Shown here: piece by piece, positions 40,086-62,589 of the stretch
How the letters are laid out: every line of letters starts with the position of its first letter
Numbering within the stretch: the first letter of the stretch is position 1
Origin: Escherichia coli
GTDB lineage: Bacteria; Pseudomonadota; Gammaproteobacteria; Enterobacterales; Enterobacteriaceae
Length of the DNA: 64,000 nucleotides
NCBI RefSeq assembly: GCF_003790525.1
Contig: NZ_CP033635.1
Reading direction: 5' to 3' (one strand)
The notes under the pieces: generated by a model
The model's database searches: none
The model's input: only the letters and a program-made list of their open reading frames with translations
What the model was told of the DNA's origin: nothing
Made by a program: the position numbers and the translations under genes

Positions 40086-40104
40086 AATGGCAAGGTTTGT
40101 AACC

Positions 40105-40140
40105 TGTAGGTCTGATAAGACGCGCAAGCGTCGCATCAGG
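40105..40140. repeat. REP (repetitive extragenic palindromic) element
   Basis: gtaggtctgataagacgcgcaagcgtcgcatcaggc matches the REP pattern (gataag...cgcatc...ggc). Confidence 0.6.
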
Positions 40141-40164
40141 CAACACCACGTATGGACAGAGATC

Positions 40165-41076
40165 GTGAGTACATTAGAACAAACAATTGGCAATACGCCT
40201 CTGGTGAAGTTGCAGCGAATGGGGCCGAATAACGGCAGTGAAGTCTGGTTGAAACTGGAAGGCAATAACCCGGCAGGTTCGGTAAAAGATCGTGCGGCAC
40301 TTTCGATGATCGTCGAGGCGGAAAAGCGCGGCGAGATTAAACCGGGTGATGTGTTGATCGAAGCCACCAGTGGTAACACCGGCATTGCGCTGGCAATGAT
40401 TGCCGCGCTTAAAGGCTATCGCATGAAATTGCTGATGCCCGACAACATGAGCCAGGAACGCCGTGCGGCAATGCGTGCCTACGGTGCGGAACTGATTCTG
40501 GTCACCAAAGAGCAGGGCATGGAAGGTGCGCGCGATCTGGCGCTGGAGATGGCCAATCGTGGTGAAGGAAAGCTGCTCGATCAGTTCAATAATCCTGATA
40601 ATCCCTTCGCCCATTACACCACCACCGGGCCGGAAATCTGGCAGCAGACTGGCGGGCGCATTACCCATTTTGTCTCCAGCATGGGAACAACCGGCACTAT
40701 CACCGGCGTTTCACGCTTTATGCGCGAACAATCCAAACCGGTGACCATTGTTGGCCTGCAGCCGGAAGAAGGCAGCAGTATTCCGGGCATTCGCCGCTGG
40801 CCTGCGGAATATCTGCCGGGGATTTTCAACGCTTCGCTGGTGGATGAGGTGCTGGATATTCATCAGCGCGATGCGGAAAACACCATGCGCGAACTGGCAG
40901 TGCGGGAAGGAATATTCTGTGGCGTCAGCTCCGGCGGCGCGGTTGCCGGAGCACTGCGGGTGGCAAAAGCTAACCCCGGCGCGGTGGTTGTGGCGATCAT
41001 CTGCGATCGCGGCGATCGTTACCTTTCTACCGGGGTGTTTGGGGAAGAGCATTTTAGCCAGGGGGCGGGGATTTAA
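40165..41076 (+). CDS. cysM: Cysteine synthase B (O-acetylserine sulfhydrylase B)
   Basis: ORF trimmed to GTG 40165 (STLEQTIGNTPLVKLQRMGP); PLP-enzyme sequence. Confidence 0.88.
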   Translation: MSTLEQTIGNTPLVKLQRMGPNNGSEVWLKLEGNNPAGSVKDRAALSMIVEAEKRGEIKPGDVLIEATSGNTGIALAMIAALKGYRMKLLMPDNMSQERRAAMRAYGAELILVTKEQGMEGARDLALEMANRGEGKLLDQFNNPDNPFAHYTTTGPEIWQQTGGRITHFVSSMGTTGTITGVSRFMREQSKPVTIVGLQPEEGSSIPGIRRWPAEYLPGIFNASLVDEVLDIHQRDAENTMRELAVREGIFCGVSSGGAVAGALRVAKANPGAVVVAIICDRGDRYLSTGVFGEEHFSQGAGI

Positions 41077-41078
41077 GA

Positions 41079-41538
<460 letters not shown>

Positions 41539-41551
41539 GAGAAAAAATTAA

Positions 41552-42403
41552 ATGAGTAGTTTGTTGTTGTTTAACGATAAGAGCAGGGCACTGCAGGCGG
41601 ATATCGTTGCCGTGCAGTCGCAGGTAGTGTACGGCAGCGTAGGCAACAGCATTGCGGTGCCTGCTATCAAACAGAACGGCCTGAATGTCTTTGCCGTGCC
41701 GACGGTATTGCTGAGCAATACGCCGCATTATGACACTTTCTACGGTGGTGCGATTCCGGATGAATGGTTTAGCGGTTATTTGCGTGCGCTTCAGGAGCGT
41801 GATGCGCTGCGCCAACTTCGTGCTGTAACCACGGGCTATATGGGAACGGCATCGCAAATCAAAATCCTTGCCGAGTGGCTGACTGCGCTACGCAAAGACC
41901 ATTCTGACTTATTGATTATGGTCGATCCGGTGATCGGCGATATTGATAGCGGAATTTATGTCAAACCTGACCTTCCCGAAGCGTATCGACAATATTTACT
42001 GCCGCTGGCGCAGGGAATTACCCCCAATATCTTTGAGCTGGAAATCCTGACCGGTAAAAATTGCCGCGATCTCGACAGTGCCATTGCTGCCGCAAAAAGT
42101 CTGCTTTCAGACACATTAAAATGGGTGGTGATTACCAGCGCCTCCGGTAATGAAGAAAATCAGGAGATGCAGGTGGTGGTGGTCAGTGCCGACAGCGTGA
42201 ATGTCATTTCCCATTCACGGGTTAAAACTGACCTGAAAGGGACTGGCGACCTGTTTTGTGCTCAGCTTATCAGTGGTTTGCTGAAAGGGGAGGCGTTAAC
42301 CGATGCGGTGCACCGCGCGGGGTTGCGCGTACTGGAAGTGATGCGCTATACCCAGCAGCATGAGAGCGATGAATTGATTTTGCCGCCGCTGGCGGAAGCA
42401 TAA
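41552..42403 (+). CDS. pdxK: Pyridoxal/pyridoxine/pyridoxamine kinase
   Basis: 283-aa ORF, ribokinase-like PdxK sequence. Confidence 0.9.
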
Positions 42404-42411
42404 AAAAATGG

Positions 42412-42423
42412 CGCCGATGGGCG
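42412..42423. repeat. IS4 target-site duplication, left copy (cgccgatgggcg)
   Basis: Identical 12-mer directly flanks the other IS4 end at 43850-43861. Confidence 0.85.
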
Positions 42424-43849
42424 TAATGCCAGTCAGTTAAGCAACTGACTGGCTCTTTTTCGGGGCTGTGGGGTATTTCCAGGGCCTCTCCTTTACCACT
42501 CTCGGGAAGGCCCTTTCCCTTCTTGTCGGTAATTTCACAAGTTGTCCCATACTTGCAAGATCGCGCATCAGCTCCGGTATACGTCCCGGTGAAGCGCCCT
42601 GCAATGTCATCAGCATTCTCATCACCATTCCACATGATTCTGAGAAACTCAGTTGATTCGGCCAGTAACCTTTCAGATGTTCCGCCATTTTAATCATCTG
42701 ATATCTCACCAGATTATAAGCCAGTAAGACACCCCACAGCTCTTGCTCCACAAGCTCCGGTTTTTTACTTCTCAGCGTCAGCCTGCTCAGTTGCATCGTC
42801 TGTTTTATCTCCCTGTATCCCAGTTCGATTTCCCAGCGATGACTGTACAGATCCGCCATTTCTCCTCCGGGGAAGCGCATGGCGTCCGTCATCGACGTCA
42901 GCAGATGGCAGACTTTTCCTTTGCGCGTCACGGTCAGCAGGCGGGCTGTCACTTCATTTCCCAGTCCCGGCCACTTTTTTCGTGCCTGCGGGCTGGTTTT
43001 CAGCTTCACCAGATGATCGCCTTTACCCAGTTTTCTGATCTCTTCATATTGCGCTCCCTTTCTGAGAGGTATCATCCAGTGGCGGTGTTCTCCCGCCAGG
43101 CTCCAGGCATTTAACAGTCCCAGTGAGTAATAACCTTTATCCATTAACGTCAGAGTGTTATCGCCGGTTTGTTCTATAAGTTGCTCAGCAAGCTCATTTT
43201 CGCTGTTCTTCATCGTGCCGAAGGCTGCAGCCGTCAGCAGATGGCTGGTCAGTTCCATCTGGCAGACCATTTTGACCTGCGGGTAGAGCGCCGGGTTCCC
43301 GGCATGTGTCTGGCGGGGGAAGGCTGCATCGTTCTCTGGTGTATCCGGTGTGCGCCAGAACACACCATCGATGGCCAGCAGGGTCAGGCCGCACCAGTGC
43401 GGATGCGGCGTGGCGTTATGCCAGAGCTGCGCTGTTTTCGTGAACACGCGGCGGACAGCCTCACTTCCCAGGCGCTGGCGGGCCTGAATAACGGCACTGG
43501 GGGCAACGAAGGGGCGATTGCCCGGCAGCATGATGTCCAGGCGATTCACAATCTGGTGAAGAGGTTCTTTACGCTCAAGCGCCATGCCAACAATACACCA
43601 GACCATCATTTCGAGGGGAAGACGGCGCTTGCGTAGCGTTACAGTACCTGATTCGGCAAGGCAACGAGAGATGAGTTCGGGGTCGAGGTAATCCCCCAGA
43701 GAAGTCAGTGGGTTACGCAGAGAATCGTAACGGGATACCAGATCAAGAGCCTGTCCAATGTGCATAAAAAAATCCGGAAACAAGTGAGCGTTTCCGGATT
43801 CTTACACAGCCACTGGATCGGTCAACTGATCCTTAACTGATCGGCATTA
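42424..43849 (-). mobile_element. Insertion sequence IS4 (1426 bp), intact
   Basis: Terminal 18-bp inverted repeats taatgccagtcagttaag / cttaactgatcggcatta (16 of 18 match), single transposase ORF, 12-bp direct repeats. Confidence 0.92.
42437..43765 (-). CDS. insG: IS4 transposase (DDE family)
   Basis: 442-aa ORF from ATG 43763-43765 ([16 protein letters not shown]) inside the IS4 inverted repeats. Confidence 0.9.
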
Positions 43850-43861
43850 CGCCGATGGGCG
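43850..43861. repeat. IS4 target-site duplication, right copy (cgccgatgggcg)
   Basis: Identical to 42412-42423. Confidence 0.85.
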
Positions 43862-43883
43862 CCATTTTTCACTGCGGCAAGAA

Positions 43884-44393
43884 TTACTTCTTGATGCGGA
43901 TAACCGGGGTTTCACCCACAGTCACGCTACCGGACAGTTTGATCAGTTCTTTGATTTCGTCCATGTTGGAGATAACAACCGGAGTCAGGGTAGACTTGGC
44001 TTTCTCTTCCAGCAGCGGCAGATCGAATTCAATCACGGTATCGCCAACTTTCACGCGCTGACCTTCTTCAGCAATACGCTTGAAGCCTTCGCCTTTCAGT
44101 TCAACGGTGTCGATACCGAAGTGGACGAACAGTTCAACGCCGCTATCAGATTCGATAGAGAACGCGTGGTTGGTTTCAAAGATTTTACCAATGGTGCCGT
44201 CTACAGGCGCGACCATTTTGTTACCCGTTGGTTTGATAGCAATGCCATCACCAACGATTTTTTCCGCAAAAACGACATCCGGCACGTCTTCGATATTGAC
44301 GATCTCGCCAGAGAGCGGAGCAATGATCTCAATAGTTCCGGTATCCTTCTTGTCGTCGGAAACCAGAGATTTCAGTTTATCGAACAAACCCAT
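43884..44393 (-). CDS. crr: PTS glucose-specific EIIA component
   Basis: 169-aa ORF ([39 protein letters not shown]). Confidence 0.95.
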
Positions 44394-58725: not shown

Positions 58726-58753
58726 CAAAAAAGCGCCTTTAGGGCGCTTTTTT
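58726..58753. terminator. Bidirectional rho-independent terminator (tRNA operon / xapR)
   Basis: aaaaaagcgcc tttag ggcgcttttt: 6-bp GC stem flanked by A-run and T-run. Confidence 0.7.
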
Positions 58754-58757
58754 ACAT

Positions 58758-58833
58758 TGGTGGGTCGTGCAGGATTCGAACCTGCGACCAATTGATTAAA
58801 AGTCAACTGCTCTACCAACTGAGCTAACGACCC
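58758..58833 (-). tRNA. lysV: tRNA-Lys (anticodon UUU)
   Basis: Reverse complement is a 76-nt cloverleaf ending CCA with anticodon loop CUUUUAA. Confidence 0.95.
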
Positions 58834-60880: not shown

Positions 60881-60949
60881 TATCCGGTGCGCCGTAAAAC
60901 CCCGTCCTTCAGGGCGGGGATATAAGGCGCGGTTTTCCACCTGACCAGG

Positions 60950-61363
60950 TGTTTGCTGTTGTTCAATGTATTGGCGGATGACGGATATTGGCGCACCTCC
61001 GCAGCTACTGGCAAAATAGCCAGGACTCCACAAAACGCCTTTGTAGTAATACCTGACTGCAATATCTGGTCGATCTCGTCGCAGTCACCTACCCGATACG
61101 CCTTTGAGGCTGTTTACCAGACTGGATATCGCCAGTTTGGGAGGATAGTTAATTAACAAATGGACGTGATCTGGTTCGCCATCCATTTCAACCAGTTCAG
61201 CTTCAAAATCAGCACATACATTTGAAAAGTAAGTGCGTAGTTTTTCTGTCGCGTCATGGTCAAAAATCTGGCGTCGGTATTTGGGACAAAGACCAGGTGA
61301 ACATGCATCAGGAAAACACAATGCCTTCCACGCCGGATATCGGTTTCTTTTTTCACAGACCAA
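60950..61363 (-). pseudogene. tnpA: IS200/IS605 tnpA (HuH Y1 transposase), frameshifted
   Basis: N-terminal part in frame of 61085-61363 (…CPKYRRQIF…HVHLLINYPP…LKGVSGR*); C-terminal part (LWSPGYFASSCGGAPISVIRQYIEQQ) in a different frame at about 60950-61033. Confidence 0.65.
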
Positions 61364-61378
61364 AATATAATTTGACCT

Positions 61379-62589
61379 GTGAAACGACTACAGGCATTTA
61401 AATTCCAGTTAAGACCCGGTGGTCAACAGGAGCATGAAATGAGGCGCTTCGCAGGCGCATGTCGTTTCGTTTTCAATCGTGCTCTGGCGCTTCAGAATGA
61501 GAATCATGAGGCCGGTAATAAATACATCCCTTACGGGAAAATGGCTTCCTGGCTGGTTGAGTGGAAAAACGCCACTGGAACGCAATGGCTTAAAGATTCT
61601 CCCTCACAGCCATTGCAACAGTCACTGAAAGACCTTGAGCGGGCTTACAAAAACTTCTTCCAGAAGCGGGCTGCTTTTCCCCGATTCAAAAAGCGGGGAC
61701 AGAATGATGCATTCCGCTACCCGCAGGGCGTTAAGCTCGATCAGGAAAACAGCCGTATTTTTCTGCCGAAACTGGGCTGGATGCGCTACCGGAACAGCCG
61801 TCAGGTCACGGGTGTTGTGAAAAATGTCACGGTCAGCCAGTCCTGCGGTAAGTGGTACATCAGTATTCAGACAGAAAGTGAAGTATCAACTCCGGTTCAC
61901 CCTTCAGCATCAATGGTCGGGCTGGATGCCGGCATGGCTGAACTTGCCACGCTGTCAGATGGGGCACAGTCTTTGAGCCTGTAAACAGTTTTCAGAAAAA
62001 CCAGAAGACGCTGGCGAGACTTCAGCGACAGTTAAGCCGCAAGGTCAAATTCAGCAATAACTGGAAGAAGCAGAAACGCAAAATACAGCGACTGCATTCC
62101 CGTATCGCAAATATCCGCAGGGACTACCTTCACAAAGTCACAACGACCGTCAGCAAAAACCACGCAATGATAGTCATTGAGGATTTGAAGGTCAGCAACA
62201 TGTCAAAGTCAGCAGCGGGTACGGTCAGCCAGCCGGGGCGCAATGTCCGGGCAAAATCAGGTTTAAACCGTTCGATACTGAATCAGGGCTGGTATGAAAT
62301 GCGCCGCCAGCTTGAGTACAAGCAGCTCTGGCGTGGCGGTCAGGTGCTTGCTGTTCCGCCAGCGTACACAAGCCAGCGTTGCGCGTGCTGTGGTCATACA
62401 GCGAAAGAAAATCGCCTGTCACAAAGTAAATTCAGATTCCAGGTATGTGGATATACAGCGAACGCCGATGTAAACGGCGCTCGTAACATTTTAGCGGCGG
62501 GGCACGCCGTTCTTGCCTGTGGAGAGATGGTGCAGTCAGGCCGCCCGTTGAAGCAGGAACCCACCGAAATGATTCAGGCGACAGCCTGA
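61379..62589 (+). pseudogene. tnpB: IS605-family tnpB (RuvC-like RNA-guided nuclease homologue), single frameshift
   Basis: Frame 1: 61379-61984 (…VGLDAGMAELATLSDGAQSLSL*); continues in -1 frame from 61981 to 62589 (VNSFQKNQKTLARLQRQL…IEDLKV…CACCGHT…[10 protein letters not shown]); shift at agc-ctg-taa, consistent with a 1-bp deletion. Confidence 0.7.

Follow-up and report, generated by a model that had tools for sequence, protein, structure and literature searches.

The sequence of the IS4 copy of Escherichia coli K-12 was reportedly described by Klaer et al. in 1981. Another copy of this element lies between the genes pdxK and crr in the stretch of E. coli DNA analysed here, a window of 64,000 nucleotides from contig NZ_CP033635.1. 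The K-12 element (insG, b4278; 1426 bp) has the same length, the same ends, the same domains in its 442-aa transposase and a duplication of the same size (12 bp) as the copy in the window. The two differ at 5 of 1426 nucleotides when compared in MG1655 (99.65% identity), and at 2 of 442 amino acids (A304G and L326R). They also differ in location, since the K-12 copy is placed between yjgZ and nanX, where its duplication is ATCTTGGTTCTG.

In 1984, Mayaux et al. are said to have found IS4 in the pheST attenuator and to have derived the target consensus AAA-N20-TTT. Both the empty pdxK/crr site (A7, 18 nt, T5) and the resident site in K-12 fit this rule. The present data add two features to it: a GC-rich hairpin between the two tracts, in which complementarity exceeds base conservation, and a position just 3' of gene ends. 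Neither the string AAAN20TTT nor any work linking IS4 with pdxK and crr was found in the literature searched.

A related example is IS231A, a member of the IS4 family that reportedly targets GGG-N5-CCC flanked by A/T-rich bent DNA (Hallet et al. 1994). Like IS4, it has a symmetric, GC-cored target between A/T tracts, an IS4-family transposase and a duplication of about one helical turn. It is, however, a different element in a different host and with a different core, whereas the duplication of IS4 is 11-13 bp long and its targets resemble intrinsic terminators.

Bidirectional terminators, where the overlap of two convergent genes contains a hairpin element, come from the work of Ju et al. 2019 (as described in bioRxiv 10.1101/2022.10.23.513370). 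The empty pdxK/crr site shows the same layout. Beyond this layout, its hairpin also has the classical form of an intrinsic terminator, with U runs on both strands.

Insertion into palindromes has been observed for IS1397 and ISKpn1 in BIMEs, and for IS621, ISPpu9 and ISRm22 (IS4 family) in REPs (PMC1525189). As with IS4 here, these elements take a fixed position in an intergenic palindrome and spare coding sequence. They use repeated families of REPs and BIMEs, whereas the IS4 targets described below are single-copy terminator hairpins with A/T tracts.

Taken as a whole, it is highly probable that the window holds a standard IS4 in its preferred kind of hairpin, that this hairpin is a recurrent target, that the copy was inherited within a clone, and that the element brings terminator-like hairpins of its own at its ends.

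Structure of the IS4 copy

The features of the element and its borders are as follows.

42412-42423, no strand: left copy of the target-site duplication, CGCCGATGGGCG (sequence and repeat search)
42424-43849, minus strand: IS4, 1426 bp (from its ends and the RefSeq annotation 'IS4-like element IS4 family transposase' in SMS-3-5)
42424-42441, no strand: inverted repeat at the end distal to the transposase start, TAATGCCAGTCAGTTAAG (16/18 against the other end)
42437-43765, minus strand: coding sequence of the IS4 transposase (InsG), 442 amino acids plus stop (list of open reading frames, NCBIfam, Pfam)
43832-43849, no strand: inverted repeat at the end proximal to the transposase start, reverse complement TAATGCCGATCAGTTAAG (comparison of the ends)
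43850-43861, no strand: right copy of the target-site duplication, CGCCGATGGGCG (sequence and repeat search)

The duplication is perfect over 12 nt and was recovered on both flanks of IS4 by the repeat search. Its size is also that of the K-12 site and falls within the range known for IS4; duplications in the IS4 family as a whole measure about 10 bp (PMC2266710). The ends of the element, TAATGCCAGTCAGTTAAG and the reverse complement of CTTAACTGATCGGCATTA, form 18-bp inverted repeats that pair at 16 of 18 positions.

The transposase gene, on the minus strand, reads without interruption from an ATG at 43765 to a stop codon at 42437-42439. The protein matches NCBIfam NF033592, 'IS4 family transposase', with 304.5 bits against a cut-off of 115, and contains the Pfam domains Nterm_IS4 (7.6e-33) and DDE_Tnp_1 (1.1e-31). 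The Y(2)R(3)E(6)K motif can be read in its translation. Length, imperfect 18-bp ends, a single open reading frame, the size of the duplication and near-identity to the reference all identify the element as IS4. It is an ordinary, previously annotated copy in its preferred type of target. A preliminary description, made from the sequence alone, had proposed an intact IS4, a 12-bp duplication and a palindrome that could be reconstructed around it, and all of this is borne out by the sequence, the repeat search, the protein profiles and the comparison with MG1655.

An artefact of assembly is ruled out, as dozens of complete assemblies, made independently, share these junctions.

The empty site between pdxK and crr

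Four features describe the surroundings of the insertion.

41552-42403, plus strand: pdxK, pyridoxal/pyridoxine/pyridoxamine kinase (open reading frame; NF006034, 526.8 bits; RefSeq in SMS-3-5)
42402-42411, no strand: left outer half of the former palindrome, A7 (42402-42408) followed by TGG (part of a 38-nt extended inverted repeat)
43862-43869, no strand: right outer half of the former palindrome, CCA followed by T5 (part of the same 38-nt repeat)
43884-44393, minus strand: crr, PTS enzyme IIA-Glc (open reading frame; NF006962, 310.7 bits; RefSeq in SMS-3-5)

The two genes are convergent, and crr is the final gene of ptsHI-crr. In MG1655 their stop codons are 42 nt apart, with the hairpin between them. 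The TAA stop of pdxK, at 42401-42403, merges into the A run. Deleting IS4 and one copy of the repeat from the window yields ataaaaaaatggcgccgatgggcgccatttttcactgcgg, which is identical to the real empty site of MG1655, so that the reconstruction first made from the window is confirmed by comparison.

The empty site has a stem of 12-13 bp, a loop of 4 nt, and runs of U5 on the plus strand and U7 on the minus strand. Its predicted fold reaches -23.4 kcal/mol (z -3.2) on the plus strand and -24.8 kcal/mol (z -4.7) on the minus strand. The earlier reading of a hairpin with A and T runs shared by pdxK and crr agrees with the strong fold on both strands and with the U runs. In structure and location, the empty site has the form of a bidirectional intrinsic terminator, and transcription in both directions is predicted to end there. 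Rfam recognized no known RNA in the spacer and, across the window, returned tRNAs only. That the palindrome is a REP or BIME is ruled out; it occurs once in the window and is shaped like a terminator.

The duplicated sequence consists of the 4-nt loop together with the inner 4 bp of each stem arm. IS4 therefore lies within the hairpin, as first proposed, but not strictly in the loop, since the staggered cuts are 12 bp apart and reach 4 bp into each arm. Likewise, the distance of 22 nt given for the gap to crr is correct if measured from the end of the duplication, while 34 nt separate IS4 itself from the stop codon of crr.

Transcription across the occupied site

Three further features bear on how the genes and the element are transcribed.

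42428-42453, plus strand: 11-bp hairpin followed by TCTTTTT, terminator-like for transcription from the pdxK side (terminator scan and folding)
43766-43803, minus strand: hairpin of 14-15 pairs (43803-43768) with U7 (43772-43766), terminator-like for transcription from the crr side (inverted repeat and folding)
43798-43825, minus strand: promoter-like site TTGACC, 16 nt, TG-AAGAAT (promoter scan, match to consensus only)

Splitting a stem of 12-13 bp leaves only a 4-bp mini-hairpin, CGCC-GATG-GGCG, on each side of the element. This would favour the idea that the insertion abolishes the shared terminator, so that transcripts of the strongly expressed ptsHI-crr operon would run on into the transposase gene and those of pdxK into IS4. 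However, both ends of IS4 contain terminator-like hairpins, which makes a loss of termination for either gene unlikely. The hairpin on the pdxK side lies 5-30 nt inside IS4, where it overlaps the inverted repeat and includes the stop codon of the transposase gene. It folds with -18.7 kcal/mol (z -4.8), and its U run reads UCUUUUU on the RNA. The hairpin on the crr side is 46-83 nt inside IS4, directly upstream of the transposase ATG, and folds with -18.8 kcal/mol (z -4.4). In relatives about 80% identical to IS4 it is conserved with two compensatory pairs, which suggests that it is functional.

If both hairpins work as their folds predict, pdxK transcription would stop at about 42453-42460 and crr transcription at about 43766-43772. 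The 3' ends of both genes are thus more likely to have moved, by about 50-120 nt, than to have been lost, and the insertion would be nearly neutral in this respect. The same hairpins would also guard the transposase gene against read-through. On the minus strand, no U run follows directly after the hairpin at the distal end of IS4.

The promoter-like site has a predicted start at about 43791, past the 5' arm of the hairpin on the crr side. A native transposase transcript may therefore start within the hairpin and thereby escape termination. Promoter-like matches in the region are no more numerous than in shuffled sequences.

Target preference

The target consensus was derived from 60 unique flanks of IS4-group elements in other species (about 30 species of Enterobacterales), most of them flanking relatives 75-91% identical to IS4; only about 16 belong to true IS4, at 99% identity, from Kosakonia oryziphila. 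The consensus has A at -20 to -17 (70-87% of sites), is C-rich from -12 to -9, and has G at -4 and -1. At least five A between -22 and -16 occur in 65% of the 60 sites, compared with 2.2% in controls. A stem of 4 bp abuts the boundary of the element in 53%, compared with 3.3-3.6% in controls. Complementarity at the pairs (-12,-1), (-11,-2) and (-10,-3) is higher than in column shuffles, at most 2 of 2000 of which reach the observed value.

These sites also have a common position relative to genes. The nearest open reading frame is directed toward the element in 41 of 52 sites (p = 3.6e-5), and the median distance from stop codon to element is 35 nt. The site in the window has the same pattern, with an A tract from -22 to -16 and a T tract from +16 to +20. 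The preference for an A run, about 20 nt and a T run, named in the preliminary description, is thus supported by 60 independent insertion sites of the IS4 group.

A matrix built from the foreign sites can be used to score the window. Out of 187,545 candidates, the real site with the real 12-bp stagger ranks first (z = 5.6), tied with one other. The tied site, at about 58734-58745, is a terminator adjoining tRNA-Lys and xapR. Queries with chimeric junctions found IS4 at this second site, in either orientation, in 0 of 5426 E. coli genomes, so the matrix alone does not predict hotspots. Either the consensus misses part of what makes the pdxK/crr hairpin a hotspot, or selection purges insertions at the other site.

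Taken together, the arrangement is consistent with IS4 having transposed into an intrinsic-terminator-like palindrome common to convergent pdxK and crr. The transposase would have made symmetric cuts staggered by 12 bp, each 3 nt inward of its A or T run, and this stagger would have led to duplication of the loop with 4 bp of either arm. Cut-and-paste movement is presumed from the analogy with IS10 and IS50. The target appears near-ideal, consisting of an A tract, about 18-20 nt with a GC-rich hairpin, and a T tract, just past a stop codon. Because of this geometry, the same phosphodiester bonds would be hit independently, in both orientations, in several lineages of E. coli.

Occurrence among E. 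coli genomes

IS4 is found at the same nucleotide in 54 of 5426 complete E. coli genomes (about 1%), so the insertion is not a one-off event. Both junctions show the orientation of the window in 38 of these genomes, and the opposite orientation in 16; the carriers represent several genetic backgrounds. At all 15 loci sampled, the boundaries are identical and the 12-bp duplication lies at the same position. The IS4 variants at these loci differ from one another by 0-12 nt.

The sequence around the element also differs between carriers. They have pdxK flank haplotypes that differ by 12-60 substitutions per 870 nt, and the A run next to IS4 is 6 or 7 long, depending on the carrier. In one pair of genomes, FDAARGOS_1249 and SCPM-O-B-12142, identical flanks surround IS4 variants 11 nt apart. 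On this sequence comparison, the pdxK/crr hairpin is a recurrent hotspot for IS4, hit several times independently in different lineages; the number of separate events depends on those 15 loci, and recombination or gene conversion among copies of the IS could obscure it.

Recurrence could also be driven in part by positive selection on the expression of crr or pdxK, through a longer 3' UTR or antisense transcription into pdxK. The insertion is kept in all 25 members of a widespread clone, the equal-scoring matrix site is never occupied, and the distal end, which has no U run on the minus strand, could let transposase transcripts run antisense into pdxK. Yet both orientations are found, although their regulatory effects would differ, carriers make up only about 1% of genomes, and the tied top score from a matrix of other species suffices to explain the recurrence. 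A contribution of such selection is rated as quite improbable.

A single insertion spread to 54 genomes by descent and homologous recombination is very improbable: recombination is frequent in E. coli and a single clone, identical in flanks and IS, accounts for 25 of the 38 genomes in the window's orientation, but the 16 opposite-orientation genomes have an unchanged duplication where inversion in place via the outer arms would give the loop CATC, the variable A6/A7 and pdxK sequence next to the element would require recombination breakpoints within a few nucleotides of it, and distinct IS4 variants sit on identical flanks.

One carrier, RMDEC465, does have a flipped loop, with CGCCCATCGGCG on both sides of IS4. 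The closest genomes with an empty site (97.0-97.8% identical) have the normal GATG loop. It is equally possible that IS4 inserted into an allele whose loop had been flipped beforehand, or that it inserted in the opposite orientation and was then inverted by recombination between the outer stem arms. The history of events in RMDEC465 differs from that in the window, because its flanks are very different.

Age and activity

The site is empty in about 99% of E. coli genomes, and the occupied state is therefore derived rather than ancestral, as had been expected. The window is identical to E. coli SMS-3-5 (NC_010498.1) over 40,300 nt, and RefSeq annotates the same copy in that genome. All 25 complete genomes whose 2-kb flanks are 100% identical to the window are occupied, and none is empty; the nearest genomes with an empty site have flanks 99.5-99.6% identical to it. 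Members of this clone include SMS-3-5, a reference strain of 2008, and isolates from chickens, humans, dogs, river water and a pangolin. By these sequence comparisons, the lineage of the window (SMS-3-5 and 24 other complete genomes) inherited its copy from the ancestor of the clone. The insertion had also been called recent, which is not supported: it is fixed in the clone, and an intact duplication and open frame give no date.

Within the clone, the number of IS4 copies ranges from 1 to 8. In mutation-accumulation lines, the single IS4 of K-12 gave rise to eight new insertions (PMC5009759). Continuing activity is plausible for this family of elements; for the copy in the window, its intact reading frame and ends are indirect evidence.

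Implications

For the window itself the consequences are small, as it carries a known element, annotated by RefSeq in the reference strain, in a target of the expected type. Use as a marker is a different matter. A recurrent hotspot with single-nucleotide precision and both orientations makes IS4 at pdxK/crr unfit for tracing common descent.

From the comparison across species, it seems that elements of the IS4 group systematically select hairpins resembling intrinsic terminators at the 3' ends of genes and bring terminators of their own. A stronger reading, for which no statement was found in the open-access literature, is that IS4 and its relatives in Enterobacterales are dedicated specialists for insertion into terminators; they would recognise the arrangement of A tract, GC hairpin and T tract in bidirectional intrinsic terminators with single-nucleotide precision, and would carry replacement terminators at both ends. 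This is put forward tentatively, as a real possibility that is still somewhat more doubtful than probable.

If it is true, an insertion would be nearly neutral for the flanking genes and the transposase gene would be insulated from read-through, a 'safe-haven' for the element. The pdxK/crr hairpin would then be a natural recurrent hotspot, and the AAA-N20-TTT rule a shadow of this specialization. The 'safe-haven' model is open to testing and of modest wider value, and the pdxK/crr site provides a short natural substrate, of about 30 bp, for studies of how IS4-family transposases select their targets.

Anatomy of the insertion

An intact copy of IS4 lies within a hairpin between two convergent genes.

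41552-42403, plus strand: pdxK, convergent with crr
42412-42423 and 43850-43861: target-site duplication, a perfect 12-bp direct repeat, CGCCGATGGGCG
42424-43849: IS4 element, 1426 bp, with ends TAATGCCAGTCAGTTAAG and its imperfect inverse (16/18)
43765 (ATG) to 42437-42439 (stop), minus strand: IS4 transposase ORF, open, 442 codons
43884-44393, minus strand: crr, convergent with pdxK

The transposase matches NCBIfam NF033592, "IS4 family transposase" (304.5 bits, cut-off 115), contains the Pfam domains Nterm_IS4 and DDE_Tnp_1, and has a readable YREK signature in its translation. Between the element and the annotated IS4 of K-12 MG1655 there are 5 nt and 2 amino-acid differences. On every testable point the element is IS4; its identity, open frame, inverted ends and perfect 12-bp duplication, as given in the preliminary description, are borne out by the sequence, both databases and the MG1655 comparison.

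Two details of position need correction. The insertion had been placed in the loop of the hairpin; the staggered cuts sit in the stem, 4 bp to each side of the loop. The 22-nt distance to the crr stop holds for the duplication, while the IS itself ends 34 nt from it. The structural reading as a whole was right.

As the target is a palindrome in its own right, 38-nt inverted repeats (42404-42441 and 43832-43869, 89% complementary) now bracket the element and reach 20 nt past its own 18-bp ends.

The empty site

Removing IS4 and one repeat copy yields ...ataaaaaaatggcgccgatgggcgccatttttcactgcgg..., the palindrome that had been reconstructed earlier and the exact sequence of the MG1655 pdxK/crr spacer. 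Transcribed from either strand, it can fold into a stem of 12-13 bp closed by a 4-nt loop; U5 comes after the hairpin in the direction of pdxK transcription, and U7 in that of crr. The fold energies are -23.4 and -24.8 kcal/mol, respectively (z -3.2 and -4.7 against shuffles). The palindrome occurs once in the window, and an Rfam search gave no match at the spacer. In E. coli, bidirectional terminators in the overlap of convergent gene pairs have been described as a class (bioRxiv 10.1101/2022.10.23.513370). By its sequence the empty site has the form of such a bidirectional intrinsic terminator, and this function is predicted for it.

Target preference of IS4-group elements

The target preference of IS4 was already known in broad terms in the 1980s. 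Scanning one genome per bacterial species with the 30 terminal nt of IS4 found 67 loci, spread over about 30 species of Enterobacterales. True IS4 (99% identity) is present in Kosakonia oryziphila REICA_142 at about 16 sites or copies; the remaining loci hold relatives, 75-91% identical, that have the terminus in common with IS4. In these, the terminal 30 nt, including an 11-bp hairpin, are identical to those of IS4.

An identical IS4-group flank on contigs attributed to Citrobacter sp. 18056 and to Chryseobacterium sp. 18061 (L039 and L079) probably reflects cross-contamination within one study, and a 1403-bp contig consisting of an IS4-like element alone (L082), in an Oscillospiraceae metagenome-assembled genome, is probably misbinned.

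A consensus was built from 60 unique outside flanks. A occupies positions -20 to -17 in 70-87% of them, positions -12 to -9 are C-rich, and G is favored at -4 and -1. In 65% of sites the stretch from -22 to -16 holds five A or more, compared with 2.2% of random positions in the same loci. A perfect stem, 4 bp or longer, ends at the IS boundary in 53%, compared with 3.3%. The pairs (-12,-1), (-11,-2) and (-10,-3) are complementary far beyond column shuffles (observed value reached in at most 2/2000), so the sites are real hairpins whose sequences vary, not merely a conserved word. The nearest ORF points toward the IS in 41 of the 52 sites with a nearby ORF (p = 3.6e-5), its stop codon a median of 35 nt away. 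Together, A tract, stem and ORF orientation indicate that IS4-group elements insert into terminator-like hairpins shortly 3' of genes.

A log-odds matrix from these flanks, all from species other than E. coli, was used in symmetric form, allowing staggers of 11-13 bp, to score the reconstructed empty window. The real position with its real 12-bp stagger takes first place among 187,545 candidates, a rank it shares with one other site (z = 5.6). Consensus and ranking thus confirm the preference for an A run, about 20 nt and a T run, which the pdxK/crr site fits by sequence; the resident IS4 copy of K-12 also fits AAA-N20-TTT.

A second hairpin reaches the same score as the real site.

~58734-58745: hairpin aaaaaag[CGCCTTTAGGGC]gctttttt, adjoining tRNA-Lys (58758-58833, minus strand)

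IS4 was found there, in either orientation, in 0/5426 complete E. coli genomes, so here the matrix prediction failed. Either the consensus looks necessary but is insufficient, or insertions at this site are selected against.

Age and recurrence

The window shares 40,300 identical nt with E. coli SMS-3-5 (NC_010498.1), whose RefSeq record already lists this copy as an IS4 transposase. When the empty site was reconstructed over 2 kb and searched against complete E. coli genomes, 25 had flanks 100% identical to it. In all 25 the IS splits the match into two pieces separated by about 1.44 kb; their sources are chickens, humans, dogs, river and surface water, and a pangolin. The closest uninterrupted genomes have only 99.5-99.6% flank identity. 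The recency first proposed is therefore unsupported; the insertion is ancestral to a widespread clone, not new in this strain. IS4 copy number within the clone ranges from 1 to 8, which is consistent with ongoing activity in the lineage and uninformative about the window copy.

In the clone member SC516, where the pdxK/crr copy is the sole IS4, ISApl1 (IS30 family) splits yfeK about 1 kb from the site (L010, 1734-3174). The window/SMS-3-5 haplotype has no yfeS (WGR-domain protein) between cysM and yfeK (~40100-41500); K-12-like haplotypes have it (L003, L004, L012), a presence/absence polymorphism 1-2 kb from the IS4 site. Downstream of gltX (~60947-62573; L001, 38674-40300), RefSeq lists the degraded fragment of an IS200/IS605 tnpA, together with a TnpB (InsQ) pseudogene that carries a frameshift.

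Junction queries, with a chimeric query for the opposite orientation, found both junctions in the window orientation in 38/5426 complete genomes and the opposite orientation in 16 more; the site is occupied in 54 (1.0%). In all 15 occupied loci that were fetched, the IS is 1426 bp long, sits at the same two phosphodiester positions and is flanked by a duplication of 12 bp. These loci vary in pdxK flank (0, 12, 20-25 or 54-60 substitutions per 870 nt), presence of yfeS upstream, A-run length (6 or 7), IS4 variant (0-12 differences) and orientation. Opposite-orientation copies retain the GATG loop; since a flipped loop is what inversion through the outer stem arms would leave, they are not in-place inversions of the window type. 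Orientation and the sequence immediately beside the IS alone indicate at least five independent insertions. Including flank haplotype and IS variant gives about 11 combinations across the 15 loci, a figure that recombination and gene conversion may blur.

In E. coli RMDEC465 (L002, 4105-4150 and 5577-5620) the duplication on both sides of IS4 is CGCCCATCGGCG, with the loop flipped, and the nearest empty-site genomes have the normal GATG loop. Either IS4 entered an unsampled allele here, or an opposite-orientation insertion was inverted through the outer stem arms.

Expected effects on transcription

IS4 splits the old hairpin and leaves each side with only a 4-bp mini-hairpin. The element has signals of its own.

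42428-42453, plus strand: 11-bp hairpin, then TCTTTTT, from the terminator scan (-18.7 kcal/mol, z -4.8), starting 25 nt past the pdxK stop
43803-43768, minus strand: hairpin of 14-15 pairs with U7 at its end, immediately ahead of the transposase ATG (-18.8 kcal/mol, z -4.4)
43825-43798, minus strand: promoter-like site, by consensus match only

The scan missed the second hairpin because its stem takes up part of the U run. Relatives about 80% identical keep this hairpin, and two of its base pairs have changed in compensatory fashion (five sequences only). With these predicted terminator-like hairpins just inside both ends, lost termination is unsupported: pdxK and crr transcripts would be expected to end a few tens of nt inside IS4 without read-through, and the transposase gene would be shielded from strong ptsHI-crr transcription. 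An mRNA of the element made from the promoter-like site would begin past the 5' arm of the 43803-43768 hairpin. IS10 and IS50 are known for read-through protection, and this layout resembles theirs, judging from consensus match and inference only. At the distal end no U run directly follows the hairpin, so transposase transcripts might run antisense into pdxK.

Significance

The finding is real but ordinary, since a reference genome already carries an annotation for this copy and the kind of target that IS4 prefers is long known in outline. Its recurrence across lineages with single-nucleotide precision is mildly interesting. So is the broader picture that the sequences suggest, for which no statement was found in the open-access literature searched: IS4-group elements may be terminator-seeking elements that bring their own terminators.
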